Assembly: GCA_964529285.1 (NCBI GenBank)
Contig: CAZGWK010000014.1
Span: 3,279 to 67,278, forward strand
Direction: 5' to 3'
DNA from: an uncultured Actinomycetota bacterium
GTDB taxonomy: Bacteria; Actinomycetota; Geothermincolia; Geothermincolales; RBG-13-55-18
Length of the DNA stretch: 64,000 bases
Positions 24,790 through 46,060 of this stretch are shown in pieces (positions within the stretch are counted from its first letter, which is position 1; every line of letters begins with the position of its first letter). A program made the translations under genes and the position numbers. The notes under the pieces are model-generated. The model was not told where the DNA came from. It saw only the letters and a list, made by a program, of their open reading frames with translations, and did no database searches.

Positions 24790-26346
24790 TCAGGTTACCC
24801 GGCGTTCCTTCACTCCCCAGAATGCCTCCCGCACCTGCATGGCGTCTATCTTCATGATCGGCGTTTTAGGCAGCGCAGCAACGAACTTTACGATGCGGGG
24901 GCACTTATAACCCGCCAGACGTTCCCTGCAGAAGGAAACCAGATCATCGGCGTCCAGGGAGCCACCCTCTTTCAGCACGACGACCGCTGCCACCGTCTCT
25001 CCCCATGTCTCGTCGGGGGCGCTGACTACGGCGGCCTCGCTAACCGCTGGATGCTCGTAGATAACGTCTTCCACCTCCTTGGGATATACGTTCTCACCCC
25101 CGGTGATGATCATGAACTGCTTGCGGTCGACGATGAACAGGTAGCGGTCCTCGTCGAAGTAACCCATGTCGTTGGAGTGCAACCAGCCGTTGCGGATACG
25201 GTCGGCGGTCTGTTCGGGATCTCTCCAGTACCCTTTCATGACGTTGGGACCTCTGATCACGATCTCTCCCACCTCGCCCGGGGGCAACTCCGTGCCCTCC
25301 TCATCAACCACCCTGACCTCGTTGTGCAGGGCCTCCCTGCCGGCGGACTGCAGCCGTTTTGCGGCGGTTGGGTCGCTCGAGAGTACGTGGGCCTCGGATC
25401 CCAGTACGGTGGCCAGGAGGGTGCACTCGGTAAGGCCGTATCCCTGGGAGAACCTGGGTTGCATGCTCGCGAGGCACTTCTCCAGGACGGCTGTGGGTAT
25501 GGGGGAGCCGCCGTAAGTGACGTTGCGCAGAGACGAGAAGTCGTAGTCCTCGAAGTCGGGGTCGTTGACTATCCAGTTGAGGAGGACGGGAACCAGGTTT
25601 ATATGCGTGATCCCCTCCCTTGTGAAGAGCCCCATGACGTGATGGAGATCGAGGCGCTTGTTGAGAACGGATTTGGCCCCGATATAGTGGGCGATGAGGG
25701 TTTGCCAGATGGTGAGGTGAAAAGGCGGCAGTACCTGGAGGGTCACGTCGTCCGCTGTCAGGTCTCCATAGATGAGGATGGTGCGCATGACGGTGAAGAA
25801 ATTGCGGTGGGTGAGCATGGCGCCCTTGGGAAGCCCGGTCGTTCCCCCCGTATAGGAGATAAGGGCTACCTCGTCCTCGCCGACCTCTATACCCGGTTCG
25901 GCCGCGGAGGATCTTGCGAGGATGTCCTCGTATTCATGCATTCCCGGAACCGGACCGTCGAAGGACACCATCGTCTTCACGTGCTCCATCCTTTCCCGGT
26001 TCTCCTCCACGAAGTCGAGATATTCCGACCCGACGAAGAGGACCCTGGAGCCGGAAATATTTAGGAGGTAAAGCATCTCGTCAGGGCTCAAGCGGTAGTT
26101 GACGGGGGCCATGATCGCACCGATCTTGAAGCTGGCGTAGTAAAGTTCGTAGTACTGGTTGCAGTTTTGCGCCAGCGCGGAGATGGTATCGCCGGTCCCG
26201 AAGCCCTGGTGCAGAAGCCAGTTTGCGAGGCGGTTGATCCTGTCGTTCAAAGCCGACCAGCTGATCCTCCGGTCCTCGAAGACCAGGGCCTCCCTGGAGG
26301 GGGACAGACCGGCGTATCTCTTTGGTATATCTCCCAGGGTCCTCAT
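24790..26346 (-). CDS. AMP-dependent acyl-CoA synthetase
   Basis: YTGGTTGLPKGAMLTHRN adenylation motif and C-terminal PKTPIMKI. The start lies 1 nt after the stop of the upstream OYE gene. Confidence 0.9.
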   Translation of the reverse strand: MRTLGDIPKRYAGLSPSREALVFEDRRISWSALNDRINRLANWLLHQGFGTGDTISALAQNCNQYYELYYASFKIGAIMAPVNYRLSPDEMLYLLNISGSRVLFVGSEYLDFVEENRERMEHVKTMVSFDGPVPGMHEYEDILARSSAAEPGIEVGEDEVALISYTGGTTGLPKGAMLTHRNFFTVMRTILIYGDLTADDVTLQVLPPFHLTIWQTLIAHYIGAKSVLNKRLDLHHVMGLFTREGITHINLVPVLLNWIVNDPDFEDYDFSSLRNVTYGGSPIPTAVLEKCLASMQPRFSQGYGLTECTLLATVLGSEAHVLSSDPTAAKRLQSAGREALHNEVRVVDEEGTELPPGEVGEIVIRGPNVMKGYWRDPEQTADRIRNGWLHSNDMGYFDEDRYLFIVDRKQFMIITGGENVYPKEVEDVIYEHPAVSEAAVVSAPDETWGETVAAVVVLKEGGSLDADDLVSFCRERLAGYKCPRIVKFVAALPKTPIMKIDAMQVREAFWGVKERRVT

Positions 26347-26347
26347 G

Positions 26348-27742
26348 TCATCTACCGCCCTCTGGATCCTCGAGGCCTCCCCTTCTGTCCAGGAACCTCT
26401 CTATCTTGCTGCGCCGCCGCGGAGAGTTCACCGGCCAGTTCTCGGGCATGTATTTCTCGTAGCCCACCAGGGGGTTGACGGTGCAGCTGACCTTTGTGGC
26501 CTCGAAGATGGAGAGCAGGCAGTTACAGCATCGAGTGCATCTCACGATATCCTTCACGCGGCCGGCCCTGACCTTTTTCGGCCAGTCGGGATCGGCCACC
26601 AGCGCGCGCGCCAGGGAGATTATATCCGTCACGCCCTCCTCTATTGCCCTGACGGCGTTGGCGGGATCGTGTATTCCCGGGACCAGTACGGGGATGTCGA
26701 AATGTTCCTTGAAGCTGCGTGCGTGCCGGTTCATCATGTCGTCCTCATAGGGAAACATGGTGTTGCAGGCGTCGTAACAGCCGGCGGAGGTGTTGATATA
26801 GTCGATATATGGCTCGCACATCTTCAGCACTTCCAGCACCGCCTCGTGATGCAAGCCGCCGGGCAACTCCTCGTCGCCGGATATGCGCATGCCGATGCAG
26901 AAGTCCTCGCCGCAGGCATCTCTCGCCTTCCTGAGCATGTTGACGATGTGACGAGCCCGGTTCTCCAGGCTGCCCCCGTACTCGTCCTTCCTGCGGTTGG
27001 TCCGGGGAGAGAGAAAATTCGCGCCCAGGTATCCGTGGGAGGTATGGAGTTCGACGCCGTCACCCTCCATCTCCTTGACCAGGAGAGCCGCCGCGGCGAA
27101 CCTGTCCTCCAGGTAGACGATCTCGTGGTGTTCCAGGGCCCTGGGTATCTCGCCGTCGATGAGGGACCTTATCTTGGGGCTTCTCTCGCCGATCAAGTCA
27201 TAGACCATCTTCTCGAAGGCATAGTACTCATCGTCGCTCAACCCCTCCACGACGTCGATATCAATGAGCTTCATCTCATCCGGGAAACGCGACCGCAGCC
27301 CCTTGTAAAAGGACCGCACCGAATAGCGCATGTCCACCTTGTGAGCGACGGCGGAGGGTGCGGCGGAGGGCACACCGCTGGCCACGTGATGCTTTCCCTG
27401 ATATCCGAAACCGGTCATCAGCTGGCATATGACCTTGCAGTCGTAGTCATGCACCGCTCGCGCCATCTCGTTGAAGATGCGGCCGTAGCGGAGATCGCTC
27501 ATGCGCGCGTTGACGGTATGGGAGGTGCCATGCCAGTCGTCGGAGATGGGCACGGTGGCCTCGGTGATAACGGCGCTCACACCTCCCCTGGCCCTGGAGA
27601 CGTACCAGGCCTGGGTCTGTTCGTCCCCGAAACCCTCCGGATCGGACATGATCATATTCATGGGCGACATCACCAGGCGGTTCTTGAGCTCCAGTTTCCC
27701 GTTGAGCGAGATGGGTTCGAAAAGCAAGTCATAGCCTGACAT
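26348..27742 (-). CDS. OYE/FadH-like FMN oxidoreductase with C-terminal [4Fe-4S] motif, lacking the FAD/NAD(P)H domain (paralog 1, 464 aa)
   Basis: N-terminal LKNRLVMSPMN OYE motif, HTSHGYLGANFLSPRTNRRKDEYGGS, and the cluster motif CTRCCNC...C..NP. The protein ends about 45 aa later. Confidence 0.85.
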   Translation of the reverse strand: MSGYDLLFEPISLNGKLELKNRLVMSPMNMIMSDPEGFGDEQTQAWYVSRARGGVSAVITEATVPISDDWHGTSHTVNARMSDLRYGRIFNEMARAVHDYDCKVICQLMTGFGYQGKHHVASGVPSAAPSAVAHKVDMRYSVRSFYKGLRSRFPDEMKLIDIDVVEGLSDDEYYAFEKMVYDLIGERSPKIRSLIDGEIPRALEHHEIVYLEDRFAAAALLVKEMEGDGVELHTSHGYLGANFLSPRTNRRKDEYGGSLENRARHIVNMLRKARDACGEDFCIGMRISGDEELPGGLHHEAVLEVLKMCEPYIDYINTSAGCYDACNTMFPYEDDMMNRHARSFKEHFDIPVLVPGIHDPANAVRAIEEGVTDIISLARALVADPDWPKKVRAGRVKDIVRCTRCCNCLLSIFEATKVSCTVNPLVGYEKYMPENWPVNSPRRRSKIERFLDRRGGLEDPEGGR

Positions 27743-27838
27743 CTTGCCCCTCCTTAAAATCCGTGGCCGGTCGTATCGACAGGGCCCGCGTACGGTACCG
27801 CGCCGCTTGAGCCGAGAAGGATCGCTCCGGCAGCCATC

Positions 27839-28654
27839 TCATACCCCCTCCATCCTCTCCCTGGCCAGATCGACGATGCCCTTGACCCCCTCGCCGCGCA
27901 TTATGTCTTGAAACTCGCGGTCGGCCTGGTGGCAGTGGGCGAGGATATCCATCTCCGAGCCGAGGACGATGGCGTCCCTGACCCCCAGGCGGTCGTAGAT
28001 AAAACGGAAACAGAACTTACCCAGCCGCACCGTCTCCGGCAGGATCCTGGAGATTATCTCGGCCGTCTCCAGGACATGGTCCTCGAGGCGGTCTCGCGGC
28101 AAGCATTTATTGACCAGTCCGCAATCCTCCGCTTCCCGTCCGTTGAATCCCTTGGTTATCAGGAGCTCCTTCGCCTTGCGCATGCCTATGATCCAGGGAA
28201 GGATGAGAGAGGGAGAGAAGGCGACGCTTACGGTTGAGATGGGCCAGTATGTGAACACGGATTCCTCGGAGCAGAAGGCTGCGTCCGCGAAGCAGCTCAG
28301 CTCTATTCCTCCCGCTATGGCCGTGCCGTCGATCTTGCAGATAACCGGCTTGCTGTAATCCCACCAGCGCTGGTACCAGTCCCGCCTGAGAAATTCCAGG
28401 AATTCCCTCCAGGATTCCTGGGTGGTGGGCGGCGAACCGACGGGGATCTCCTCGGAGATATCATGTCCCGCGCTGAACACCGAACCCTCGGCGTCCAGGA
28501 TCACCACCCTGCATTCCTCGTTCCTCTCGGCCTTTGCCATGGCGTCCCAGACCTCGGACATGAGCTGCTTGCCGAGAGCGTTTCGGCGACCGGGGTCGTT
28601 GAGGGTCAGGCGCGATACGACGCCCTCGCTGAAAAGGATCTTCTCGTATTCCAT
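27839..28654 (-). CDS. Enoyl-CoA hydratase/isomerase (crotonase) family protein
   Basis: LNDPGRRNAL, VVILDAEGSVFSAGHD and GTAIAGGIELSCFADA oxyanion-hole regions. AGGAGGAGG RBS. Confidence 0.85.
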   Translation of the reverse strand: MEYEKILFSEGVVSRLTLNDPGRRNALGKQLMSEVWDAMAKAERNEECRVVILDAEGSVFSAGHDISEEIPVGSPPTTQESWREFLEFLRRDWYQRWWDYSKPVICKIDGTAIAGGIELSCFADAAFCSEESVFTYWPISTVSVAFSPSLILPWIIGMRKAKELLITKGFNGREAEDCGLVNKCLPRDRLEDHVLETAEIISRILPETVRLGKFCFRFIYDRLGVRDAIVLGSEMDILAHCHQADREFQDIMRGEGVKGIVDLARERMEGV

Positions 28655-28691
28655 AATCCGCCTCCTCCTGGTTAACGAGCTTGCATATCAG

Positions 28692-28709
28692 GGAACGATA
28701 TATCATTCC
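28692..28709. promoter_or_regulatory. 18-bp near-perfect palindrome GGAACGATATATCATTCC (candidate operator of the MerR-TetR regulator)
   Basis: Located 38 nt upstream of the crotonase start, directly after a TATAGT hexamer on the minus strand. It matches the perfect palindrome at 46061-46078 in the paralogous control region. Confidence 0.5.
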
Positions 28710-28801
28710 AACTATATAATTCCCGAGACATCAATGGGCTATTTATGTCCGCAAAACCATTAATAACGACAAATAAAGGTGCAGTCAAGTCAGTTTAGGG
28801 G

Positions 28802-28830
28802 TTGACGCAATACTTTTATAACTAAATAAT
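28802..28830 (+). promoter_or_regulatory. Candidate sigma70-type promoter of the regulator gene
   Basis: TTGACG-N17-AATAAT about 50 nt upstream of the ATG at 28881, in AT-rich DNA. Confidence 0.4.
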
Positions 28831-28880
28831 ATAGCTACATAGTTTTGTGGGAGTTTTATATAGTATGCGGGAGCAGCGAG

Positions 28881-29735
28881 ATGGAGGAAGCCAGAGGAAC
28901 GGACCTGCGCATATCCGACCTGGAGAGGATCACGGGGACAGGCAGGAGCACGATCCATTATTACCTGCGCCGGGGTCTTCTTTCCGCGCCCAGGCGGTCC
29001 GGCAGGACCATGGCCTATTACGACCAGGAGCACGTGAAGGACCTCAAGGCCATCAGGAAATGGCGCAGGGAGGGTTACCCGCTCACCATGATCGAGAGGA
29101 AGCTCCAGGAGGCAAGAAAACGGAAGGGCGGCGGGGGAGGTGGCGGGGAGTCCGTACGCACGGGTAGAAGGCAGCTGATCATGGACGCGGCGGTCGGTGT
29201 GTTCGCCCGCAAGGGCTACCACAAGGCCAGGATCAGCGATATAACCAGTGCCGCCGGGGTCGGCTACAGCACCTTTTACCTCTATTTCCCCGATAAACTT
29301 GACCTGCTGGCGCAGAGCGTGGACGAGATCCTCCAGGCCATGTTCGCCGACGTGATAGAGGAGATAAGGCACGAGACCGATCCCCTGAAGCGCTTGAGGA
29401 AGAGGGCCGAGGTGGCCGTGGTAGCGCACCCCGAATTCGTCGACATCCTTTCGGTGCTGCGGGGAACCACGGAGGAGGAACCGCGTCTCGAGGCGAAGCG
29501 CAGGGAACTCTACGAGTACATAGCCGAGCACGTCGGGAGGGACCTCGAAAGGGCCGTCCAGATGGGCCTGCTGCCCCCTATGGACGTGGAGATGACGGCG
29601 TTCATGCTGGTGGTAGGGGTGCTCGAATCCGCGGCCCTTCTCACCAGGAAGGGCCGGGAGTCCGAAGCGTACCGGCTGCTGGACTGCTTTCAGGATATGC
29701 TTCTTCCCCGCGGGAAGCCCCTTCAGCCCTTATGA
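28881..29735 (+). CDS. MerR-type HTH fused to a full TetR/AcrR regulator (paralog 1)
   Basis: N-terminal LRISDLERITGTGRSTIHYYLRRGLLSAPRRSGRTMAYYDQEHVKDLKAIRKWRREGYPL (MerR HTH). A Gly7 linker follows, then IMDAAVGVFARKGYHKARISDITSAAGVGYSTFYLYFPDK (TetR HTH) and a ligand-domain-sized C-terminus. Confidence 0.8.
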   Translation: MEEARGTDLRISDLERITGTGRSTIHYYLRRGLLSAPRRSGRTMAYYDQEHVKDLKAIRKWRREGYPLTMIERKLQEARKRKGGGGGGGESVRTGRRQLIMDAAVGVFARKGYHKARISDITSAAGVGYSTFYLYFPDKLDLLAQSVDEILQAMFADVIEEIRHETDPLKRLRKRAEVAVVAHPEFVDILSVLRGTTEEEPRLEAKRRELYEYIAEHVGRDLERAVQMGLLPPMDVEMTAFMLVVGVLESAALLTRKGRESEAYRLLDCFQDMLLPRGKPLQPL

Positions 29736-29852
29736 ACCGGTCCTACACGGGATTTAAGATCCCATTAAGGCAAGTTCCATTCTCTATGTCCGCCATCGTC
29801 CGCTGACTGCAGCCGCGCTCCTTTCGATCGACCTCCAGCAGAAGATCTTAAC

Positions 29853-30866
29853 CTAAACGCCCACTCTTCTCTGCGAGGTATCCACTCCCAGAAGCCTGGC
29901 GAGGTTGAGGCCGAAGATCTTGGCGCGGTCCTCGTCGCTGAGGGCCGGGTAACCGTAGCCCTCCTGCATATCCTCGGGGAACTGGAAATCGCGCAGCCCC
30001 TGCACCGCTCCCTTGAGCTGCATGCCGAAACCCGCGTAGTCGGTGCCCCAGATGATGCGGTCCGGTCCCACGAAGCGCATGGCCTCGCCCAGGATCCTGG
30101 CGAACTTGCGCGGTGCCGAGGCGGCCCAGGGCACCAGCAGGGACAGGCAGGGATAGACATTGGGATGACCCAAGGCTACCATGTTGAGGTCGTCGCAGTA
30201 GGGATAGCCCATATGGAAGGCGACTATCTTGAGGTCGGGGAAGTCCCGCGCAACGTCGTCGAGCTGGATGGGAAGGGCGTACTTGCTCTTTCCCGGCGGC
30301 ACCCAGCAGAAGCCGGTGTGGATGTCCAGGACGATGTCCAGCTCCTCCGCTTTGGCGTAGAAGGGCCACAGGTCGGGGTCGTTGATATAGGTATCCTCGG
30401 GAGGGTAGAACTTGAAGATCTTCGCTCCCCTCTCCTTGACCCAGTACTCCAGCTCCCAGACGGTGTTCTTCACCCCCTTGAACTTGATGGGGGAGATGTT
30501 GGGCTGGTACATGAAGCGGTCGGGGTGGGCGTCGGCCACCCTGGCCATCTCGCCGTTGGTGACCCAGCGGCTGGTGTAGCCGGTGGTGTCCATCATGGAC
30601 TCCGGCAGCAGGCAGGCGATGTCCACCCCGTACTTGTCCATGTACGCGAGGAGGGCCTCCGGGTCCAACTGCTTGGTAAGCTCCTTGGGTTCCATCCCCT
30701 CCAGCATCTCCGGTTTGATGCCCATGATGAAGGGAAGCTTGATGGCGTCAATGGCCCGCCACCACATCTGCACCCCGGGGAAGTGGTTGATGGGCTCCAT
30801 ATCCCCGATGAGATGTGCCTCGGGGTCGATCTTGAAGAAATCGTCCCTCTCGAATCCGTCGCTCAT
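29853..30866 (-). CDS. Amidohydrolase_2 family protein (metal-dependent hydrolase/decarboxylase fold)
   Basis: KIFKFYP, LDIHTG, VAFHMGYP and WGTDYA strand-end motifs of the PF04909-type TIM barrel. AGGAGGAGGAG RBS. Confidence 0.75.
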   Translation of the reverse strand: MSDGFERDDFFKIDPEAHLIGDMEPINHFPGVQMWWRAIDAIKLPFIMGIKPEMLEGMEPKELTKQLDPEALLAYMDKYGVDIACLLPESMMDTTGYTSRWVTNGEMARVADAHPDRFMYQPNISPIKFKGVKNTVWELEYWVKERGAKIFKFYPPEDTYINDPDLWPFYAKAEELDIVLDIHTGFCWVPPGKSKYALPIQLDDVARDFPDLKIVAFHMGYPYCDDLNMVALGHPNVYPCLSLLVPWAASAPRKFARILGEAMRFVGPDRIIWGTDYAGFGMQLKGAVQGLRDFQFPEDMQEGYGYPALSDEDRAKIFGLNLARLLGVDTSQRRVGV

Positions 30867-30926
30867 GATCTCCTCCTCCTGGTCTCTCCGACTTCGAATC
30901 CGTTTCTCTATATACGCAATGCCGTA

Positions 30927-33095: not shown

Positions 33096-33153
33096 CAGAC
33101 CTCCGTTCTATCCCACGCAATCGACTGTCGGGTTCGCCGCTCTGTGCGGACCG

Positions 33154-37617: not shown

Positions 37618-37662
37618 GGTTCACCTCCTTGCCCTCCCGGGCGTCTTCGCTCTTCCACCCCC

Positions 37663-39201: not shown

Positions 39202-39233
39202 CTCTTCTCTCCTTCCCTCCGTATGATACCTGT

Positions 39234-40619
39234 CTATATCAACGGCAGACCTTCCGCCTTGGCCATGAACTTCTCCACCTTGCCTTTGACCGCCGGGGCG
39301 TTCACGCGCCATAACTCGGGTATGTAGCGCTCGAAGCCAGCGGTGGGATTGACGCTGCAGCGCAGCCACTTATGCTCGAAGAGGTTCATCAGGCAGGTGT
39401 TGCAGCGTGTGCACTTCACGATGTCCTGCACCCGTCCCGCCTTCACTTTGGCTGGCCAGAACGGGTCGGCGATGGCCTGGCGCCCCAGCATCACAAGGTC
39501 GGTAACACCGTCCTTAAGCGCCTTCGCGGCTGCACGCGGGGTCTTGAAGGTGGGCGTCATCACCGGCAGGCCGGAGGCCTCCTTGAATCCGGGAGCGTAC
39601 TTGAGCATCTCCCCCTCGCCGTCCGGCTCGAAGGCCGCCGGGTTCTCGTAGCATCCCTGGGAGATACTCACGTAGGTGAGGCCCTCCCGCGCGGCCATGG
39701 CCACGAACTGCTTCATCTCCTCGTTACCGGCGCCATCGGGCATGAGCTCGTCGCCGGAGAAGCGCGCTCCCAGCACGCGGTCGGGCCCGATGCGCGCCCG
39801 TATCTTGCGGATTATATTGAGAAGGAAACGGGCGCGGTTCTCCACGCTGCCGCCGTATGCGTCGGTCCTCTTGTTGGAGCGGCCCGAGAGGAACTCGTGG
39901 ATGAGGTAACCGTGGGGGCTGTGCAACTCCACGCCGTCGAAGCCGTAGCGAAGAGCTTCCGCGCTAATCTCCGCCATCTTCTCCTCCATGAATACGATCT
40001 CGTCTATAGACAGCTCGCGCGGCACCTCGCCCTTCCACACCTTGAGCAGGGAAGGGTCCTCGTTTATAAGCACCTGCTCCAGCACCTTCTCCAGCTCCGC
40101 GTATTGCTCGTCATCCATGGCGCGTATGGTATCCAGCCCTCCCAGGTCCTTGACCAGCTTGGGCGCCAGGCGCTTCAGTTGTTTCTCCCAACCCTTGTTA
40201 AGGTTGCGCAGGTCGATGCGCATGGGTATGGGGGACGGCGCTCCGGCGGCCAGGTGGGGAGCGGCCGCGGAAGCATGGCCCTGGCGGCCGAATCCCGGTG
40301 AGAGCTGTATGAAGACCTTGGCCCCGAAGGCGTGTATGTTGTCGGCCATCTCGCCCAGCCTGCGCCCGTACCTCTCGTCGCTGAAGAGATGGGTGTTGAG
40401 GTGGTCCGACCCCCGCCAGGTGTAAGGGTTGACCACGGTGGCGTCGGTGACGATAAGCCCGAAGCCCCCCTTGGCGCGGGCGGCGTACCAGGCCAGCCAT
40501 TGTTCGGAGTTGTAGCCGTCCGCGTCGCAATAGACCATGTTCATGGGGGCCATGACCACGCGGTTCTTCAGCTTCACGTCCCCGATCTTGAACGGCTCGA
40601 AAAGTATGTCGTAATCCAT
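39234..40619 (-). CDS. OYE/FadH-like FMN-[4Fe-4S] oxidoreductase lacking the FAD/NAD(P)H domain (paralog 2, 461 aa)
   Basis: LKNRVVMAPMN, HSPHGYLIHEFLSGRSNKRTDAYGGS, and CTRCNTC...C..NP near the C-terminus. Confidence 0.85.
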   Translation of the reverse strand: MDYDILFEPFKIGDVKLKNRVVMAPMNMVYCDADGYNSEQWLAWYAARAKGGFGLIVTDATVVNPYTWRGSDHLNTHLFSDERYGRRLGEMADNIHAFGAKVFIQLSPGFGRQGHASAAAPHLAAGAPSPIPMRIDLRNLNKGWEKQLKRLAPKLVKDLGGLDTIRAMDDEQYAELEKVLEQVLINEDPSLLKVWKGEVPRELSIDEIVFMEEKMAEISAEALRYGFDGVELHSPHGYLIHEFLSGRSNKRTDAYGGSVENRARFLLNIIRKIRARIGPDRVLGARFSGDELMPDGAGNEEMKQFVAMAAREGLTYVSISQGCYENPAAFEPDGEGEMLKYAPGFKEASGLPVMTPTFKTPRAAAKALKDGVTDLVMLGRQAIADPFWPAKVKAGRVQDIVKCTRCNTCLMNLFEHKWLRCSVNPTAGFERYIPELWRVNAPAVKGKVEKFMAKAEGLPLI

Positions 40620-40765
40620 CTTTCCCCCTTGTACGTTACTGCGGGTGAGTCTCTACCCGCTACCTTCACCTGTACCGGCCTGTCCCGACGACCGTCCGCA
40701 CCGGAGAGATCTTCATGGAGCTCCCCACCCTCCGAACATCGCCGCTGCACCTCTTCCACATATCT

Positions 40766-40791
40766 TCAGACTTCAGAGATCAGACTTCAGA
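40766..40791 (-). repeat. 12-nt direct repeat x2 immediately 3' of the acyl-CoA dehydrogenase stop
   Basis: Plus strand TCAGACTTCAGA-GA-TCAGACTTCAGA (minus-strand transcript TCTGAAGTCTGA x2), at the edge of a 172-nt intra-operon spacer. Confidence 0.6.
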
Positions 40792-41955
40792 CTAGAAAGA
40801 CTTGGGTAGTCCGTAGCACTGCGCGATGAAATTCTTGCTCATCTCGTTGGACAGGGGGCTGAAGACCATCTGCTGCGAGTCGCGCCAGTAGCGCTGGATG
40901 TCCGCCTCCATGGTCACCCCGTAGCCGCCGAATATCTCCATGCCCACGGTGGCCGCGTCGAGGGCCATCTGGGAGGCGTAGAGGCCGGCCATGGTCGCCT
41001 CGATGTGGTAAGGCCTGCCGGTATCGGCCAGCCAGGCACATTTGTATACCAGGTTGCGTGCGTTCTCGATGCCTACCGCCATGTCCGCCAGGTAATGCTG
41101 GATGATCATGAACTGCCCGATGGGTTTGCCGAACGCCTCGCGCTGCTTGGCGTAGGCGAGACAGTCCTCGAAGATCTTTTCCGCCAGCCCCACCGATATC
41201 ATGGCCACGCCGATACGCTCGGGGTTGAGGGTGGAGAGCACGTCGTACCAGCCGTTGTTGAGCTGACCGAGCAGGTTGGTCTTGGGCACCCGCACGTTGT
41301 CGTAGAAGACCTCGCAGGAGCCGCAGCAGTGCGTGCTAACCTTGGGGATGGTGCGGATGTCTATGCCCGGGGCGTTCGCCGCTACCATGATGATAGAGAG
41401 CGCGTGCGAGCGCTTGGGGTTGTCGCGGTCTGTTATGGCCACCGTGGTCAGGTAGTCCGCCACGTGCGCCCCGGTGATGTAGATCTTCTGCCCGCTGATG
41501 ACGAAGTCGTCCCCGTCGGAGTCGGCGTAGGTGGATATCGCCCCCAGGATGTCGGTGCCCCCCGCGGGCTCGGTCAGCGCGAGGGAGAACCTGAGCTTGC
41601 CCTCGGCGATGCGGGGAAGGAACTCCCGCTTCTGTTCCTCGCTTCCCAGCTCCACTATGGGCCTGGTGCCGAAGCCGATGGTCGCCCCGACGCCGAGGGC
41701 GACCGCCGTCGAAGCCTTGGATATCTCCTCGAAGCCGACCATGGCGGTGACCATGTCGGCGCCGTCGCCGCCGTACTCCTCGGGGACCGACGCGGCGAAG
41801 AGCCCCATGGCTGCGGCCTTGTCCCACACCTCCTGGGGCATGAAGTCCAGTGTCTCCTCCCACTCGCGTATCTTCTCGCTGGTTATCTCCTTGGCGCAGA
41901 ACTCGCGCACCGCGGCGCGCATGAGTTCCTGCTCTTGGGTGAACGCAAAGTCCAT
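40792..41955 (-). CDS. Acyl-CoA dehydrogenase
   Basis: ACAD three-domain layout: ALTEPAGGTD, ...GQKIYITGA..., and C-terminal YWRDSQQMVFSPLSNEM. Confidence 0.9.
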   Translation of the reverse strand: MDFAFTQEQELMRAAVREFCAKEITSEKIREWEETLDFMPQEVWDKAAAMGLFAASVPEEYGGDGADMVTAMVGFEEISKASTAVALGVGATIGFGTRPIVELGSEEQKREFLPRIAEGKLRFSLALTEPAGGTDILGAISTYADSDGDDFVISGQKIYITGAHVADYLTTVAITDRDNPKRSHALSIIMVAANAPGIDIRTIPKVSTHCCGSCEVFYDNVRVPKTNLLGQLNNGWYDVLSTLNPERIGVAMISVGLAEKIFEDCLAYAKQREAFGKPIGQFMIIQHYLADMAVGIENARNLVYKCAWLADTGRPYHIEATMAGLYASQMALDAATVGMEIFGGYGVTMEADIQRYWRDSQQMVFSPLSNEMSKNFIAQCYGLPKSF

Positions 41956-41961
41956 ATGCGG

Positions 41962-42771
41962 CTATCCTCCTTGTTCCTGTTTCTTCATGGCCTCCAGGGC
42001 CTGCAGCGCCATGTTGCGCAGTGCGGTGGTGTGCTCGGAGTGGAAGAGCCAGGCGATGGCCTCGCGCTCGACGGCCATGGCCGCGTCCCAGGGCATGCCC
42101 TGGAAGGAATAGTTGAGCACCGCCTTGCCCATGCGCAGGGAGTCGGCGGGATTGGCGCACAGCACCGCCACCATCTCGTCCACCTTGGTGTCGAACTCAT
42201 CATCCGCATATACGCGCGTGAGCAACCCCATGTCGTAGAACTCGCTGGCGGTGTAGTCCTTGCGCCCGGTGAGGAGGATCTCGCGGCCGCGGAAGATGGG
42301 CAGGCACCTGGCCAGGCGCACCGTCCCGCCCCAGCCGGGCAGGATGCCCATGGTGACCTCGGTGACCCCGAACTTGGTCCTCTCGGATGCGTAGATGAGG
42401 TCGCAGGCCAGCGCCAGTTCCAGGCCTCCGGCAATACAGTGGCCCTTGACCTTGGCCACCACCACCTTCTCGCTCTCGGTGATGGCCCGCACGATGTCCT
42501 GCCCGGTCCGACCCATCCAGTCCATCACGGAATAATGGTTGAAGGTGGGCAGGACGGAAAGGTCGCCACCGGCGCAGAAGGACTTGCCGGCCCCGGTGAG
42601 AACGACTACTTTCACACCTTGCTCGTCCCGCGCGCTGGTGAGGGCTTCCAGCAGTTCCTCCGCCAGTTCCACGTTGATGGCGTTGCGCTGCTCGGGGCGG
42701 TTCATGGAGATGGTGCACACGGCATCCTCAGGACCGCTTATCTCGTAGAGGATCGTGTTGTAGTCAGTCAT
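41962..42771 (-). CDS. Enoyl-CoA hydratase/isomerase (crotonase) family protein
   Basis: NRPEQRNAI, VVVLTGAGKSFCAGGD and GHCIAGGLELALACD. Confidence 0.9.
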   Translation of the reverse strand: MTDYNTILYEISGPEDAVCTISMNRPEQRNAINVELAEELLEALTSARDEQGVKVVVLTGAGKSFCAGGDLSVLPTFNHYSVMDWMGRTGQDIVRAITESEKVVVAKVKGHCIAGGLELALACDLIYASERTKFGVTEVTMGILPGWGGTVRLARCLPIFRGREILLTGRKDYTASEFYDMGLLTRVYADDEFDTKVDEMVAVLCANPADSLRMGKAVLNYSFQGMPWDAAMAVEREAIAWLFHSEHTTALRNMALQALEAMKKQEQGG

Positions 42772-42797
42772 CTAGACCTCCTTCATACTTGAGCTAT

Positions 42798-42930
42798 GTA
42801 CACGTGCCAGGCCTGGACAAGTCGTGCCACAATAACGGGATTCGTCAGCGAGGCCGGACTTGTCCAGGCACTGGACACCACCGTGCCGCAGACGGCACGG
42901 TCGCTTGCGCGATGCATACTGTCGATCGTT
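42798..42930 (+). repeat. Structured intergenic repeat, copy C (inside the minus-strand operon)
   Basis: GTACACGTGCCAGGCCTGGACAAGTC...GACTTGTCCAGGCACTGGACACC, then hairpin CCGTGCCG-CAGA-CGGCACGG, then TCGCTTGCGCGATGCA ... CTGCAGAC. Collinear with copy B. Confidence 0.6.
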
Positions 42931-42941
42931 CCTGCAGACAC

Positions 42942-44261
42942 CTAGAAGTCTTCTTTCATCTCCGGGAGCTTGGGAGGAACGCGCATCTTGGTAACCGGCG
43001 TGGCCTTGATGGGCGGACGCCAGTACTCGGGCATGTACTTCTCCCGACCGGTGTTGGGGTTGCGTACACAGCGCACCGGCATACCGGCAGCCGTGCGCAT
43101 CAGGCACTCGTTGCAGCGTATGCAGCGGGTGATGTCTTCGACCCTGCCCTCCGCCACCTTGTTGCCCCATTCCGGGTCGGTGAACATCTGGCGCCCCAGG
43201 GATACGATGTCGCACTGTCCCGTGGCGATGGCCTTCTCGGCGAGCTCCGGATCGTGTACCGAGGGGCAGAACACCGGAACGGCCACTGCCTTCTTGAAAT
43301 TGGCCGATTCCTCGAGCATGGCCCCGTCTTCGTCGGGGAAGAAATACTTGAGCGCTTCGTAAGACCCGTCGGACAGGTGGATGTAATCGGCGCCCATGGC
43401 CGCCAGGGTGCGCGCAACCTCCAGCGCCTCCTCGTGGGTTATGCCGCCCTGCAGGTGCTCGTCCGCCGACATGCGCACCCCCAGGATGTAATCGTGCCCC
43501 ACCGATTCGCGCACCTTCAGGTAGACTTCCATCATGAAGCGCATGCGGTTCTCGAGGCTGCCGCCGTAGAGATCGGTCCGCCTGTTCGATATCGGCGAGA
43601 GGAACTGGTGCTCCAGGTAGCCGTGGGGCGCGTGCAGCTCGATACCGTCGAACTGGGCGGCCATCGCGAAGCGGCAGGAGTTTGCGAACTCGTCTTGCTC
43701 TGCCCGTATCTCGGCCACCGTCATCTCGTAGGGCATCTCGCCCATGGCACGCTCGATGAGCTGCGGGTGCGCTTCGAGCGCCTTTGCGAAGCCGCGGGGC
43801 ATGAGCTCGGGCCTGACCATCATGGGCACTATGGAGGGGGCGGGGGGATGCTCGCCTGCATGGGAGTGTCCCTGCCTGCCGAAGCCGATGGACATCTGCA
43901 CGAAGCAGGCCGAGCCGAAGGCATGGACCGTCTCCGCAACCTCGAAGAGCCCCGGCATGTGCGAGGTGTTGTAGCAGTGCAGGTTGGTGGTGTAGGGGTA
44001 GCGCGAGGCCAGCCGCGTGCCCAGCACGCACTCGGTGATGATCAGCCCGCACCCTCCCCTGGCGCGCGCCCCGTAGTAGGCGAGTATCTGCTCGTTGACG
44101 TAGCCGCGGTTGTCCAGAGAGAAGAGGGTGTTCATGGGGGCCAGGGCGATGCGGTTGCGTATCTCTACCCCCTTGATCTCCATGGGGGAGAGCAGGTGCT
44201 TGAAGTCACCTTTTCCCGATCCCTTCTTCGCAGGCTTCTTGGCCGCTTTTTTATCTGCCAT
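42942..44261 (-). CDS. OYE/FadH-like FMN-[4Fe-4S] oxidoreductase lacking the FAD/NAD(P)H domain (paralog 3, 440 aa)
   Basis: Start at MADKKAAKKPAKK with AGGAGG upstream; the track ORF extends to 44606. IRNRIALAPMN, HAPHGYLEHQFLSPISNRRTDLYGGS, CIRCNEC...C..NP. Confidence 0.85.
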   Translation of the reverse strand: MADKKAAKKPAKKGSGKGDFKHLLSPMEIKGVEIRNRIALAPMNTLFSLDNRGYVNEQILAYYGARARGGCGLIITECVLGTRLASRYPYTTNLHCYNTSHMPGLFEVAETVHAFGSACFVQMSIGFGRQGHSHAGEHPPAPSIVPMMVRPELMPRGFAKALEAHPQLIERAMGEMPYEMTVAEIRAEQDEFANSCRFAMAAQFDGIELHAPHGYLEHQFLSPISNRRTDLYGGSLENRMRFMMEVYLKVRESVGHDYILGVRMSADEHLQGGITHEEALEVARTLAAMGADYIHLSDGSYEALKYFFPDEDGAMLEESANFKKAVAVPVFCPSVHDPELAEKAIATGQCDIVSLGRQMFTDPEWGNKVAEGRVEDITRCIRCNECLMRTAAGMPVRCVRNPNTGREKYMPEYWRPPIKATPVTKMRVPPKLPEMKEDF

Positions 44262-44290
44262 CTGCTGATACCTCCTGGGATATGTGCCAC

Positions 44291-44764
44291 TTATTTCTTC
44301 ACCGGGCGCCACTTGGGCAGGGTGACCTCGCCTGTGACGTCGTCGAAGACCACCTCCAGCTTCATGCCGTTCTCGATCTTCTCGAAATCGTCGCACTCCA
44401 CGATGTTGGATATCATGCGCACGCCCTCCTCGAGGTCCACCATGCCCAGGACGTAGGGGAGGTCGGCCCAGAAGGGGAAGGGCACCCCGAAGTGATTTAT
44501 GGCGTAGGCGAAGAGGGTGCCCTTGCCGGAGGCCTCGATCCATTCGTGCTCGTCGGCGTGGCAGGCGGTGCAGTAGAGATAAGGGGGGTGGTCGATGTTG
44601 CCGCACTTAGAGCACTTCCTGAGCACGAGGCGGTGCTCCCGGGCAGCGTCCCAGAATGGCTGGGACCACTTGGTGGGTAGCGGAAGGGGCTTCTCGAGGT
44701 CCTCGTCCGTGAGGTTCATCATCGCCTTGATGGTCTCGATGTCGATGTGCTGTTTCTCGGCCAT
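44291..44764 (-). CDS. DUF35 Zn-ribbon/OB-fold protein (thiolase partner, BbsA/archaeal-thiolase-scaffold type)
   Basis: CSKCGNIDHPPYLYCTAC zinc ribbon followed by an OB-fold segment. It lies directly downstream of a thiolase gene. Confidence 0.85.
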   Translation of the reverse strand: MAEKQHIDIETIKAMMNLTDEDLEKPLPLPTKWSQPFWDAAREHRLVLRKCSKCGNIDHPPYLYCTACHADEHEWIEASGKGTLFAYAINHFGVPFPFWADLPYVLGMVDLEEGVRMISNIVECDDFEKIENGMKLEVVFDDVTGEVTLPKWRPVKK

Positions 44765-44782
44765 TGCTTTCCTCCTATCCCT

Positions 44783-45985
44783 CTAGCCGGGTATCTCGTT
44801 GCCCAGGACACTGAAGTGACAGTCCATAAAGGCCCCACCGCCGGTGTTCTCGATGAGGAACTTCGCGCCCTCCACCTGGGCCTTGCCCGCCTTGCCCTGC
44901 AGCTGCCGTACCGATTCCACCAGCAGGGCGATGCCTACCCCGGTGCCGGTATGTCCGAAGGACAGCGCCTCTCCGTTGGTGGTCACGGGGTACTTGCCCC
45001 CCGGAGATGTCTCGCCCGATTCCACCAGGGCTCCTGATGTCCCCGGCTCGCAGATGCCCAGGGCGTCCATGATGATCAGCTGGATGCAGGGATAGGAGCC
45101 GTAGACCTGGTATATGTCCATGTCATCGGGCCCCAGCCCCGCCCTCTCGTAGGCCATCCCGGCCGTGGGTTTGAGGTACTCGGCCATGGAGGCGAAATCC
45201 TTCATCTCAGCCCGGGTGATGGTGCGGTGGGAGTAATTGGATGCGTCTCCGAGTGTGTAGACGGGCTTGCTCGTAACCTTTCTCGCCTTCTCCGCCGTGG
45301 TCATCACGAAGGCGCTGCCTCCGTCCCCCAGCACGTTACACATCAGGGTGGTGAGGGGATAGGAGACCATGCGGGCGTTCACCACCTTGTCCACGGTGAT
45401 CTCCTTGTTGTTGAACATGGCGTTGGGCTGCAGCATGGCCCAGCGGCGGTTGGCCACGCACACCGAGGCCACCTGCTCGATGGTGGTGCCGGTGATGTTC
45501 ATGTAGGCCTGGGTGATCATAGCCGCCAGGGCGTTGTAGGTCATGCCGTAGGGTACTTCCCACTCCACGTCGGAGCCGGCGATGGAGAAATACCTGGCCT
45601 GCTCGTTGGGGGTGAACTGGCTGAACCTCTCCGCGTGGACCACCAGGACGGTGTCGGTCTCGCCGGAATGCAGGATGCCCTCGGCGGTCTTGCGCAGGGA
45701 GAAACTGGAGGCTCCTCCCGAGGAGGTCATGCAGGTTATCTTGCACCCCCTGGCTCCGATGGCCTCCGGCAGGCGCCCGAACACCATCTCCGTGTTGTAG
45801 TCGTTCTCCGGGTTGGACATGATGTGCTGCGCGCAGAGGATGGCGCCGATCTCGTCCTTGTCTATACCCGCGTCCCGGATGGCCTCCCGGGCCACGGTGT
45901 AGGCTATCTCGAACTCGGTGCGCTCCGGGTAGTTGCCGCAGGGCACCTCCCCGGTGCCGATGATGGCGAACTCGCCTCTGCTCAT
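44783..45985 (-). CDS. Thiolase-fold protein (SCP-x / BbsB-like thiolase)
   Basis: FAIIGTGEVPCG N-terminus, MTSSGGASS active-site Cys-loop region, and C-terminal GHTGTGVG and ENTGGG. Start chosen at MSRGE because GGGAAGGGAG lies 6 nt upstream; the track ORF starts at 46006. Confidence 0.85.
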   Translation of the reverse strand: MSRGEFAIIGTGEVPCGNYPERTEFEIAYTVAREAIRDAGIDKDEIGAILCAQHIMSNPENDYNTEMVFGRLPEAIGARGCKITCMTSSGGASSFSLRKTAEGILHSGETDTVLVVHAERFSQFTPNEQARYFSIAGSDVEWEVPYGMTYNALAAMITQAYMNITGTTIEQVASVCVANRRWAMLQPNAMFNNKEITVDKVVNARMVSYPLTTLMCNVLGDGGSAFVMTTAEKARKVTSKPVYTLGDASNYSHRTITRAEMKDFASMAEYLKPTAGMAYERAGLGPDDMDIYQVYGSYPCIQLIIMDALGICEPGTSGALVESGETSPGGKYPVTTNGEALSFGHTGTGVGIALLVESVRQLQGKAGKAQVEGAKFLIENTGGGAFMDCHFSVLGNEIPG

Positions 45986-46060
45986 GATCATCTCCCTTCC
46001 CTTCATGCCTCCGGTAGAGGTCCGGTGGCCTTGCCGTATAAGCGCTCATTAACGCTGATG

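Follow-up and report, generated by a model that had tools for sequence, protein, structure and literature searches.

The only known aldolases of the thiolase fold act on steroid side chains (PMC12329534). In the bile-acid aldolase CtSal, whose partner is a DUF35 domain, the Tyr of a YDCY motif constitutes the catalytic base, while TcLtp2 uses YDHF (PMC12329534). DUF35 also serves as the scaffold in the archaeal thiolase and PhlACB complexes (PMC12329534). In the thn pathway, a lyase is needed at a tertiary alcohol and a putative amidohydrolase, ThnN, is included (PMC12016498).

The locus described here is a real and conserved cluster of an uncultured anaerobic actinobacterium, without earlier characterisation; a literature search found no paper describing the cassette. 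The host is a metagenome-assembled genome (MAG) of the class Geothermincolia (3.4 Mb, 96% complete), and the window, the whole stretch analysed, comprises 64,000 nucleotides. The 15 minus-strand genes listed in an initial annotation are all present, and Pfam and NCBIfam agree with the families it gave them. Its reading of the locus as catabolic for CoA thioesters and arranged in two units is supported; each unit has a divergent regulator. The island probably degrades the CoA ester of a substituted organic acid. Its features are as follows.

24790–26346, minus: ACS1, AMP-forming acyl-CoA ligase, operon 1 (Pfam AMP-binding, E 3e-88; NCBIfam PRK06187 above cut-off)
26348–27742, minus: OYE1, short FMN/[4Fe-4S] Old Yellow Enzyme, operon 1 (Pfam Oxidored_FMN)
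27839–28654, minus: ECH1, crotonase fold, operon 1 (Pfam ECH_1)
28692–28709, no strand: predicted operator copy 1, 18-bp palindrome GGAACGATATATCATTCC
28881–29735, plus: Reg1, MerR-HTH::TetR fusion regulator, divergent from operon 1 (Pfam MerR_1 and TetR_N)
29853–30866, minus: AH2, amidohydrolase_2 metal-dependent TIM barrel, core member (Pfam PF04909)
30927–33095, minus: Mo/W-B, cytoplasmic bis-PGD enzyme (three Pfam domains)
33154–34266, minus: compact cytoplasmic RdhA-like corrinoid/2x[4Fe-4S] protein (TIGR02486 below cut-off; PceA match)
34263–36443, minus: Mo/W-A, acetylene-hydratase-like cytoplasmic bis-PGD enzyme (full-length match to PDB 2e7z)
36478–37617, minus: URO-D-fold protein, CdmB-like putative substrate:corrinoid methyltransferase, MT-I (Pfam URO-D)
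37663–39201, minus: ACS2, core acyl-CoA ligase (Pfam, NCBIfam; start from orthologues beginning MITLGDIPRKH)
39234–40619, minus: OYE2, short FMN/[4Fe-4S] OYE, core (Pfam)
40792–41955, minus: ACAD (Pfam)
41962–42771, minus: ECH2, crotonase-type enoyl-CoA hydratase (Pfam ECH_1, E 1e-52)
42811–42869, no strand: imperfect hairpin in the 170-nt OYE3–ECH2 spacer (inverted repeat I6, 27-nt arms, 5-nt loop, 78% complementary)
42942–44234, minus: OYE3, short FMN/[4Fe-4S] OYE (Pfam; start corrected)
44291–44764, minus: stand-alone DUF35 protein, Zn ribbon and OB fold (Pfam zf-ChsH2 and OB_ChsH2_C)
44783–45985 (first called 44783–46006), minus: thiolase-fold protein, putative retro-aldolase (Pfam Thiolase_C_1)
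46061–46078, no strand: predicted operator copy 2, 18-bp palindrome GGAATGACTAGTCATTCC
46251–47114, plus: Reg2, MerR-HTH::TetR fusion regulator, divergent from operon 2 (Pfam)

The starts of OYE3, ACS2 and the thiolase-like gene were corrected from orthologue lengths; the 554-aa open reading frame of OYE3 extends too far upstream, and for the thiolase-like gene, whose homologues are 400 aa long, 45985 is the most likely start. On this basis, junctions are mostly 60 nt or less, as had been proposed, except for two spacers of about 170 nt: they measure 18, 56, 170, 6, 172, 32, 45, 34, -4, 58 and 60 nt from the thiolase-like gene to AH2 in operon 2, and 96 nt (ECH1–OYE1) and 1 nt (OYE1–ACS1) in operon 1.

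Three parts make up the island. The first is a conserved core cassette, which many Geothermincolia and a Chloroflexia MAG possess; it comprises a MerR-TetR regulator, thiolase-like protein, DUF35, OYE, crotonase, ACAD, OYE, acyl-CoA ligase and amidohydrolase_2. The second is a variable accessory block with a CdmB-like URO-D methyltransferase, a pair of Mo/W enzymes resembling acetylene hydratase and the compact cytoplasmic RdhA, and the third is a rare 5-kb add-on, operon 1. What had been read as a single 12-gene operon is a composite of core and accessory block, and operon 1 is a rare insertion. The search of public genomes for this gene order, suggested at the outset, returned 13 Geothermincolia loci in related MAGs that keep the order Reg, THL (thiolase-like), DUF35, [AH2], [OYE3], ECH2, ACAD, OYE2, ACS2; OYE3 is missing from the cassettes of some relatives. 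The order also recurs in relatives found by DNA search, and the ACS, OYE, ACAD, THL, DUF35, AH2 and ECH families are found together on a Chloroflexia MAG chromosome. The recurrence in the 13 loci and the DNA-search relatives indicates that the arrangement is far beyond chance. Moreover, the cassette is widespread in other genomes and the host itself carries three paralogous copies, this island being one; the third, distant one lies on C13, and URO-D-like and RdhA-like genes recur with it. Operon 1 may be a recent partial duplicate of the regulator, crotonase, OYE and ligase. ACS1 and ACS2 are 47% identical, Reg1 and Reg2 51%, and ECH1 and ECH2 only 25%, while OYE1 is 41% identical to OYE2 and 36% to OYE3.

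The 18-bp palindrome lies in both control regions, with two matches in the window against 0.04 expected, and these copies are its sole exact sites in the 3.4-Mb genome. It is kept 60–80 bp upstream of the thiolase-like gene in eight related loci, and a Reg2-type regulator is divergent in ten. The two paralogous fusion regulators are predicted to act via this shared operator and to control both units. That the genes are chance neighbours drawn from unrelated housekeeping pathways, the outcome that the initial annotation had named against itself, is barely credible. Every family is generic and NCBIfam offers generic names only, but the synteny across three Geothermincolia families and into another phylum already contradicts this reading, as do the paralogous cassettes, the operator private to both units and the separate canonical beta-oxidation (ACAD-ECH-3HCDH) sets on C10 and C18.

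Central to the reading proposed below is the thiolase-like protein. The PDB alignment places Thr94 at the position of the nucleophilic Cys, which is present in the archaeal thiolase 7yvy. Further, the protein reads Y302-G-S-Y where BbsB, 7yvy and 6esq have HDAF or HDCF (Tyr for His), and N-T-GGG at the C-terminal Cys position, so that no Cys occupies any of the three catalytic positions. The 121 homologues examined, namely those at 70% identity or more, have Thr94 and Tyr302 without exception, and against the Cys and HDAF of BbsB this led us to reject the earlier suggestion of a Bbs-type thiolase. No enzyme of the thiolase superfamily is known to carry out thiolysis without a Cys nucleophile. 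Second among the solved relatives ranks CtSal (9MYR; E 3e-40), to which the protein is overall about as close as to the archaeal thiolases (E 5e-39); BbsB is a clear relative (E 1e-34) and PhlC is also among the solved ones. The DUF35 protein retains CxxC...CxxC and matches BbsA weakly. Overall, this 'thiolase' without thiolase cysteines looks like an aldolase. Since a C304S change abolished the activity of CtSal (PMC12329534) and the motif here is Y-G-S-Y, the acid catalyst, if any, must differ.

Given the kinship with archaeal thiolases and PhlC, and a DUF35 scaffold common to their complexes, the pair could be imagined to work in the condensing or acyl-transfer direction, in the manner of archaeal thiolase/HMG-CoA synthase/DUF35 or PhlACB, within a biosynthetic cluster. 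We regard this as highly improbable: those enzymes use the Cys nucleophile that the cassette protein lacks, Pfam found no HMG-CoA synthase or PhlA-like partner in the island, and the combination of two acyl-CoA ligases with an ACAD, a two-Glu hydratase and a ligand-responsive regulator of the TetR type is typical of catabolism.

Pfam finds neither a 3HCDH nor an SDR domain in the island, confirming the reported lack of a 3-hydroxyacyl-CoA dehydrogenase. The aldolase reading would explain this absence, as ACAD and hydratase followed by a retro-aldol cleavage can do without a dehydrogenase. The four tandem SDRs of the window, formerly the dehydrogenase candidates, are not linked to the cassette: they occur in nine of nine congeneric genomes, two of which lack it, they sit on different contigs from it in the others, and they are only 29–36% identical to an SDR inside some relatives' cassettes. 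That SDR, FabG/3-hydroxybutyrate-dehydrogenase-like, lies between ACS2 and the accessory genes in at least three related cassettes, L022 probably being a fourth, and could be a 3-hydroxyacyl-CoA dehydrogenase. It could be argued that the island degrades an aromatic or alicyclic acyl-CoA by ordinary, Bbs-type thiolytic beta-oxidation, with a true thiolase/DUF35 pair related to BbsAB and a dehydrogenase supplied in trans, for which the host offers five canonical 3HCDH_N genes, all on other contigs; the distant C13 paralogue even retains the nucleophilic Cys. We consider this unlikely. The missing cysteines speak against it, the SDR-bearing relatives have an equally Cys-less thiolase-like protein, and no orthologue of their SDR was found in the 96%-complete host genome, where the best match is 39% identical.

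From the directly observed gene content, conservation, active-site substitutions and operator we infer every reaction and the substrate, the order of reactions being drawn from family chemistry and active-site residues. ACS2 would form the acyl-CoA, in which ACAD would introduce a 2,3-double bond. Aligned to 5lnx, ACAD has Pro opposite the Glu of YEG, and a Glu is present in LNPERIG; the LNPERIG and FSP features are kept in all close cassette orthologues and in Chloroflexia, and the protein is 81–96% identical across Geothermincolia. The likely catalytic Glu would thus lie on helix G, the position used by isovaleryl-CoA and long-chain acyl-CoA dehydrogenases, and would therefore leave space for bulk at C3. 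Hydration is assigned to ECH2, which has both catalytic Glu residues, with AGGLELAL and FGVTEVTMG kept in close cassette orthologues and Chloroflexia; ECH1, by inspection, lacks the second, reading ..FTYWPIS.. at that place. Against this scheme, known aldolase systems rely on MaoC hydratases and not on crotonases. The 3-hydroxyacyl-CoA would then be split by retro-aldol chemistry on the thiolase-fold protein, which the DUF35 protein would hold, giving acetyl-CoA or another short acyl-CoA together with an aldehyde or a ketone; no thiolysis would be needed.

The short OYEs may reduce or desaturate a conjugated C=C in either the thioester or the carbonyl product. OYE1 lacks the FAD and NAD(P)H domains, its match to the 640-aa FadH/BaiCD-type models of NCBIfam being confined to their N-terminal ~380 positions, and the C-x2-C-x2-C...C motif of OYE2 is kept in 14 orthologues. 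The best solved relative of OYE3 is 2-naphthoyl-CoA reductase (6qkg, E 1.5e-45), followed by chromate reductase-type OYEs and the 2,4-dienoyl-CoA reductase DCR (1ps9), so the likeness of these truncated FMN/[4Fe-4S] proteins to dienoyl- and aryl-CoA reductases, remarked on previously, holds. Without an NAD(P)H module, an external electron carrier would be required. On the remainder, AH2 could catalyse a metal-dependent decarboxylation, hydration or C–C hydrolysis. Its metal ligands (D14, E16, H18, H183, H218, D276) are invariant in 34 homologues, proteins at least 75% identical to it are spread over several phyla, and its AlphaFold model (pLDDT 85.5) has BB4693, 2,6-dihydroxybenzoate decarboxylase, LigW, LigJ and LigY as Foldseek neighbours at 15–20% identity.

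The accessory block is envisaged to remove or rework ring substituents: O-methyl, hydroxyl and possibly halogen. Mo/W-A, whose best relative is acetylene hydratase (2e7z, E 7e-106), keeps the Cys ligand and has His where that enzyme has an Asp beside the second cluster Cys; MAGs of Syntrophomonadaceae, Dehalococcoidia and Deltaproteobacteria encode homologues that are at least 67% identical. Its paralogue Mo/W-B (49% identical) has an N-terminal C-x2-C-H-x2-C motif and no TAT motif. The closest relatives reported for acetylene hydratase are catechol dehydroxylases, with soluble non-TAT forms in Actinobacteria (PMC7028382). The RdhA-like protein scores 79 bits on TIGR02486 against a cut-off of 160; it aligns with PceA over residues 157–326 (E 1.4e-17), and its orthologues keep both Fe-S motifs and the Tyr and Arg that align with PceA residues counted as 246 and 305. 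The URO-D-like protein is closest among solved structures to CdmB (9rui, E 8.6e-32), which is zinc-independent (PMC13222342), and a classical corrinoid protein adjoins the URO-D-like gene in two cassettes related by paralogy or orthology, L026 and the one on C13.

The same ACAD–hydratase–aldolase logic could serve an alicyclic, isoprenoid or steroid-like acid, such as a ring-acetic acid, hydrated at C3 to a tertiary alcohol; cleavage would leave a cyclic ketone that the OYEs desaturate, the Mo/W enzymes hydrate and the amidohydrolase opens. The steroid provenance of the thiolase-fold aldolases, the helix-G Glu, the BaiCD-type OYE matches (cyclic enones being classical OYE substrates), the hydratase nearest to the Mo/W enzymes, the C–C hydrolase LigY near AH2, an SCP2 gene at 1722–2285 and the thn parallel all lean this way. 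It is nevertheless a doubtful alternative, as the CdmB-like methyltransferase with its corrinoid neighbours, the RdhA-like protein and the decarboxylase-like neighbours of AH2 better fit aromatic ring substituents, the Asp of acetylene hydratase is replaced, and no steroid-specific genes were seen. Our best guess for the substrate is a phenylpropanoid-type aromatic acid that carries methoxyl or hydroxyl groups, taken solely from the substrates of distant relatives of each family. We give about an even chance to the reading in which the island represents a widespread anaerobic CoA-thioester catabolic cassette with retro-aldol cleavage, most likely of such a substrate.

With BbsAB the cassette shares the DUF35 partner, but the nucleophilic Cys and HDAF motif of BbsB and the archaeal thiolases are both missing from its thiolase-fold protein. 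In these replacements the protein agrees with the steroid side-chain aldolases Sal and Ltp2, which are likewise paired with DUF35, and CtSal also has no Cys at the aligned nucleophile position; the difference lies in the motif, YDCY or YDHF in those enzymes and Y-G-S-Y in the cassette protein.

The genes that the initial annotation named on the minus strand at 24790-46006 are all present in the order it gave, as established by ORF listing together with Pfam and NCBIfam scans. The Pfam scans also bear out its statement that this island has no 3-hydroxyacyl-CoA dehydrogenase (HADH), since no 3HCDH or SDR domain falls within 24790-46006. Its interpretation has stood in part: that of a CoA-thioester catabolic cluster without an HADH holds, while the Bbs-type thiolase and the tandem SDRs proposed as partners do not. 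The members of the two predicted operons, as identified by Pfam and NCBIfam, are as follows.

27839-28654, minus strand: ECH1, crotonase, operon 1
26348-27742, minus strand: OYE1, Old Yellow Enzyme (OYE), operon 1
24790-26346, minus strand: ACS1, acyl-CoA ligase, operon 1
Operon 2, minus strand, in order: thiolase-like, DUF35, OYE3, ECH2 (crotonase), ACAD (acyl-CoA dehydrogenase), OYE2, ACS2 (acyl-CoA ligase), URO-D-like, Mo/W-A, RdhA-like, Mo/W-B, AH2 (amidohydrolase_2)

Three gene starts were corrected from orthologue lengths, giving OYE3 at 42942-44234, ACS2 at 37663-39201 and a thiolase-like gene that probably starts at 45985. With these starts the junctions of operon 2 measure 18, 56, 170, 6, 172, 32, 45, 34, -4, 58 and 60 nt, and those of operon 1 measure 96 and 1 nt. 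An imperfect hairpin with 27-nt arms (42811-42869) lies within the 170 nt that separate OYE3 from ECH2. Scans for promoters and terminators gave counts close to the shuffled expectation, with no clear internal terminator seen, and are uninformative.

Central to the island is the thiolase-like protein, whose solved relatives are, best first, 4u4e (uncharacterised, 3e-42), CtSal 9myr (3e-40) and the archaeal thiolase 7yvy (5e-39), with BbsB (1e-34) and Ltp2 (9e-24) further down. In the alignment with 7yvy the nucleophilic Cys stands opposite Thr94 of the query; in those with BbsB and 6esq it falls three residues off, opposite a Gly, and no query Cys matches it. A paralogue on contig C13 of the same genome (41% identical) aligns without gaps and reads FVCASGG, and Thr94 is therefore the nucleophile position. 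Neither the nucleophilic Cys that thiolases carry at the N-terminal end of their active-site helix (C-A-S-G), nor the His of HD[AC]F, nor an acid/base Cys (in HDCF or the C-terminal CxGGG) is found; the GH histidine is retained. The query has Y302-G-S-Y against HDAF or HDCF in 7yvy, BbsB and 6esq, and N-T-GGG at the CxGGG position, a reading (N-T-G-G-G) seen in this genus. Each of 121 database homologues of at least 70% identity keeps Thr94, Tyr302 and the GH histidine, and the Bbs-type true thiolase first suggested is contradicted by the alignments and by the invariance of Thr94 and Tyr302.

Sal (YDCY) and Ltp2 (YDHF) are thiolase-fold retro-aldolases in which this Tyr serves as the base and to which a DUF35 domain binds; their second catalytic residue is Cys304 in Sal and a His, together with Tyr344, in Ltp2, and the C304S mutation inactivates CtSal (PMC12329534). 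The protein of the island likewise lacks a Cys where the nucleophile aligns and places a Tyr first in the YD[CH][YF] motif, and the DUF35 gene lies 18 nt downstream of the thiolase-like gene at every locus. The second catalytic residue is absent, with Ser or Ala at the Cys/His position. Since the Tyr, the Cys-less nucleophile position and the putative DUF35 partner are common with Sal and Ltp2 and the second residue is not, the protein would, on sequence grounds, be aldolase-like, its membership of the Sal/Ltp2 family being unproven.

ECH2 keeps both crotonase Glu residues, a trait shared by the orthologue from Chloroflexia and by every close orthologue in the cassettes, though not by the C13 paralogue, and inspection of the sequence shows ECH1 to be without the second Glu. 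ACAD has Pro at the canonical YEG Glu position and a Glu in LNPERIG, and its close orthologues and the Chloroflexia protein retain both features; the LNPERIG Glu would sit at the helix-G position that serves isovaleryl-CoA and long-chain acyl-CoA dehydrogenases. An ACAD, a hydratase and a retro-aldol step constitute the dehydrogenase-free logic of steroid side-chain degradation, and we propose this as the explanation of the 'missing' HADH. The genome itself holds five canonical 3HCDH_N genes, all outside the island and on other contigs, and two of them, on C10 and C18, have ACAD and crotonase genes beside them, so that separate ordinary beta-oxidation sets exist.

Four tandem SDRs had been put forward as the only HADH candidates in the window, a role their distribution argues against: all nine congeners have them, even G003 and G005, where the cassette is missing, and they sit on other contigs than the cassette in G002, G006, G008 and G009. 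The array to which they belong (13105-18299) comprises an ApbA-like reductase, a 4HBT thioesterase and the four SDRs (57-61% mutual identity), and is kept genus-wide, independent of the cassette. A caveat to the proposed explanation of the 'missing' HADH is that a FabG-like SDR lies inside at least three related cassettes, with a fourth (locus L022) probable, where it co-occurs with thiolase-like proteins equally devoid of the Cys. It has no orthologue in the window's genome (best match 39%), and the window's four tandem SDRs are, at 29-36% identity, not related to it.

The host MAG, of which the window is contig C14, is 3.4 Mb in size and 96% complete. Conservation was surveyed by a DNA search of 40 relatives and by tblastn of 17 island proteins against 14 loci. 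The conserved layout consists of a divergent MerR-TetR regulator followed by thiolase-like, DUF35, ECH2, ACAD, OYE2 and ACS2 genes, with AH2 and OYE3 variably present between DUF35 and ECH2, and SDR, URO-D, Mo/W-A, RdhA, Mo/W-B and AH2 genes variable after ACS2. A Chloroflexia chromosome (locus L034) groups ACS, OYE, ACAD, thiolase-like, DUF35, AH2 and ECH genes, its AH2 being 73% identical to that of the window. An even sample of 401 Actinomycetota genomes yielded thiolase-like orthologues in 13 of the 31 Geothermincolia genomes apart from that of the window, while the 369 others had none. Some thiolase-like homologues of at least 70% identity are labelled Deltaproteobacteria, and homologues of AH2 and Mo/W-A at 67-82% identity bear the labels Dehalococcoidia, Desulfomonilaceae, Desulfobacteraceae and Syntrophomonadaceae; the cultured Desulfosporosinus shakirovi encodes an AH2 homologue of 77% identity. 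One thiolase-like homologue (P0253, 85% identity) is labelled 'Candidatus Methanomethyliaceae archaeon', which would be due to mis-binning of the contig or else to transfer into archaea. The cassette is abundant among sediment and subsurface MAGs, and its patchy yet highly conserved distribution is consistent with horizontal spread. In the literature we found no description of this gene combination.

The genome carries three cassettes, namely the island, C20:20059-28597 and the distant C13:21754-35382; together with the loci in relatives they rule out an island that is unique or genome-specific. Most members of the C20 cassette are 58-90% identical to those of the island, with its ECH at 40% and its RdhA truncated. 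What is left of the latter (C20:21094-21603, between ligase and AH2) is just the C-terminal 170 residues, the Fe-S half, at 81% identity; it represents the remnant of a deletion or else a ferredoxin-like ORF that stands alone. The C13 cassette runs crotonase, PFK-like gene, TetR, amidohydrolase_2 (HxH type), MaoC, ACAD, ligase and OYE, followed by a thiolase with the nucleophilic Cys, DUF35, corrinoid protein, URO-D-like and RdhA-like genes. Apart from the cassettes, a second amidohydrolase_2 in the window (5667-6629) is 48% identical to the one just downstream of the cassette at locus L026 (13134-14027), and may be functionally linked to the cassette. The left end of the window holds an SCP2 sterol-carrier-like gene (1722-2285) and another acyl-CoA ligase gene (22-1446), with a gene resembling ADP-forming CoA ligases alongside.

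Operon 1 reads as a partial duplicate of the regulator, crotonase, OYE and ligase. Beyond the window's genome it is found in full, with its regulator Reg1, only in the congener G008, at the same position, and in part in G011; since the nitroreductase gene abuts AH2 in G006, operon 1 is seen as an insertion of ~5 kb. The palindrome GGAAYGA-N4-TCRTTCC occurs in both control regions (2 sites against 0.04 expected), has no further exact site in the genome, and is kept in eight related loci, where it lies upstream of the thiolase-like gene by 60-80 bp. Its confinement to the two control regions and its retention in relatives suggest that the two units form one small regulon, with control predicted to lie with the paralogous MerR-TetR fusions.

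The accessory block of operon 2 comprises the URO-D-like, Mo/W and RdhA-like genes. Mo/W-A, which retains the Cys ligand, gives a full-length match to acetylene hydratase (7e-106), and neither Mo/W enzyme has a TAT motif. In both, as in all eight Mo/W-A orthologues examined, His replaces the Asp beside the second cluster Cys (C-x2-C-D), which we take to be catalytic in acetylene hydratase, and acetylene hydratase proper is ruled out by this replacement. The closest relatives reported for acetylene hydratase are the catechol dehydroxylases, with soluble forms in Actinobacteria (PMC7028382). By analogy, kinship of the Mo/W enzymes with catechol dehydroxylases is a possible lead.

The RdhA-like protein belongs by its features to the RdhA/QueG corrinoid Fe-S superfamily: both [4Fe-4S] motifs are present, along with residues that align with PceA Tyr246 and Arg305 (against 4uqu), whose roles in PceA we presume, and these are kept in the orthologues. 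It scores 79 bits with TIGR02486 against a cut-off of 160, no RR/TAT motif is apparent by eye at its N-terminus, and no small membrane-protein (anchor) gene adjoins it; the low score, the lack of a TAT motif and the lack of an RdhB anchor gene rule out a respiratory RdhA. The URO-D-like protein has the URO-D fold without the zinc motif, its nearest solved relative being CdmB, a zinc-independent substrate:corrinoid methyltransferase from a family that includes O-demethylases (PMC13222342). Classical corrinoid proteins adjoin the URO-D-like gene at locus L026 and in the C13 cassette; there is none in this island. Elsewhere in the window, a stand-alone MtaA-type URO-D methyltransferase (58957-59955) has no adjacent corrinoid protein, and near it lies a 368-aa protein with a C-terminal 2x[4Fe-4S] domain (62247-63353).

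OYE1-3 are OYE barrels that end ~30-55 residues past a conserved four-Cys motif, at 430-464 aa against 640-714 aa for FadH, NCR and BaiCD, and their profile matches reach no further than about position 380 of 640. Barrel and cluster motif are present, the C-terminal FAD/NAD(P)H module is not; without that half, they would, as predicted from sequence, have to trade electrons with a separate carrier. Among solved structures OYE3 matches NCR best, only marginally ahead of plain OYEs. AH2 is a TIM barrel with the E/H-x-H, His, His and Asp metal ligands, in which D14, E16, H18, H183, H218 and D276 are invariant. The folds nearest to its confident model (pLDDT 85.5), at 15-20% identity, are BB4693, 2,6- and 2,3-dihydroxybenzoate decarboxylases, LigW, LigJ, LigY and ACMSD, with 2dvt, 4qro, 4l6d, 6dxs and 5vn5 among the fold matches.

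Taken as a pathway, the core cassette would use ACAD, hydratase and aldolase to clip a short acyl-CoA from an activated acid, the OYEs and AH2 would then rework the carbonyl product, and the accessory block would process substituents. Since the characterised relatives of nearly all members act on hydroxylated or methoxylated aromatic acids, a phenylpropanoid-type substrate is favoured by analogy, if tentatively and at somewhat less than an even chance; the main alternative is an acid of alicyclic or isoprenoid type whose C3 bears a tertiary alcohol. A bolder and rather unlikely proposal is that the cassette encodes an undescribed, horizontally shared, O2-independent route in three stages for substituted aromatic acids derived from lignin or humic matter. 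Retro-aldol side-chain removal would take place on the thiolase fold, without dehydrogenase or thiolase; the CdmB-like methyltransferase, the acetylene-hydratase-like Mo/W enzymes and the cytoplasmic RdhA would strip ring substituents; and ferredoxin-dependent short OYEs would reduce the conjugated system. Horizontal transfer would have proceeded among Geothermincolia, Chloroflexota, Desulfobacterota and Firmicutes of anoxic sediments.

The genome further encodes at least 14 HGD-D family proteins, of the 2-hydroxyacyl-CoA dehydratase or benzoyl-CoA reductase type, as well as 4-5 tungsten enzymes of the AOR family, a radical and tungsten enzyme repertoire unusually rich for 3.4 Mb. A genome without candidate dearomatising enzymes is thereby ruled out, and no argument can be made from their absence. 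One AOR gene, on contig C46, directly adjoins an acyl-CoA ligase.

Should the thiolase-fold protein prove to be an aldolase, Ltp2/Sal-type C-C cleavage would not be a steroid speciality of aerobes, and strict anaerobes of several phyla would use it as a general device. In that case 'acetyl-CoA acetyltransferase' annotations would be wrong, and reconstructions seeking a 'missing' dehydrogenase would be misled. Moreover, the cassette ties four poorly understood enzyme groups, namely short Fe-S OYEs, a highly conserved amidohydrolase_2, acetylene-hydratase-like Mo/W enzymes and non-respiratory RdhA homologues, to one CoA-ester pathway, and so offers a handle on the anaerobic turnover of recalcitrant organic acids. 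Desulfosporosinus shakirovi could make the question testable, should the rest of the cassette be present there.

Among known systems, 2-naphthoyl-CoA reductase (NCR), the 2,4-dienoyl-CoA reductase FadH and BaiCD have the same OYE TIM barrel followed by a four-Cys cluster motif, the C-terminal half being missing here. The Mo/W enzymes resemble acetylene hydratase of Pelobacter acetylenicus in being cytoplasmic bis-PGD enzymes of ~725 aa with an N-terminal [4Fe-4S] cluster and a Cys metal ligand, and, among the related catechol dehydroxylases of Coriobacteriia, the soluble Gordonibacter-type ones in having no TAT signal; no small ferredoxin gene was found adjacent to the Mo/W genes. With CdmB and the O-demethylase MT-I the island shares a URO-D fold without zinc motif, and a corrinoid protein is adjacent in the paralogous cassettes. 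Unlike those systems, it has neither a classical corrinoid protein nor an MT-II, the RdhA-like protein being the sole B12-type neighbour. The thn (naphthalene degrader N47) and bam (Geobacter) clusters are likewise anaerobic CoA-ester clusters with ACADs, crotonases, OYE-type reductases and a putative enzyme of the amidohydrolase superfamily (ThnN/BamU) (PMC12016498); thn, however, has HADHs, true thiolases, MaoC hydratases and AtuA-like lyases, and is without DUF35, Mo/W, RdhA and URO-D genes.

BbsAB, the benzoylsuccinyl-CoA thiolase of the anaerobic toluene pathway, similarly pairs a stand-alone DUF35 protein with an SCP2-type thiolase-fold subunit in a CoA-ester pathway with ACAD and crotonase, but the catalytic Cys and HDAF of BbsB, and the BbsCD dehydrogenase of that pathway, are all absent here. 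Steroid and bile-acid side-chain systems consist of an ACAD (ChsE/Scd), a hydratase (ChsH1-H2/Shy) and a thiolase-fold aldolase (Ltp2/Sal) on a DUF35 domain. The cassette differs from them in its crotonase-type rather than MaoC hydratase, its separate DUF35 protein (theirs being fused to the hydratase), its YGSY in place of YDCY or YDHF, its strictly anaerobic host, its additional FMN/Fe-S OYEs and amidohydrolase_2, and the absence of steroid genes. What it has in common with them is an ACAD, a hydratase, a Cys-less thiolase-fold protein with a Tyr for the thiolase His, a DUF35 protein, and a sequence of steps that needs no dehydrogenase.
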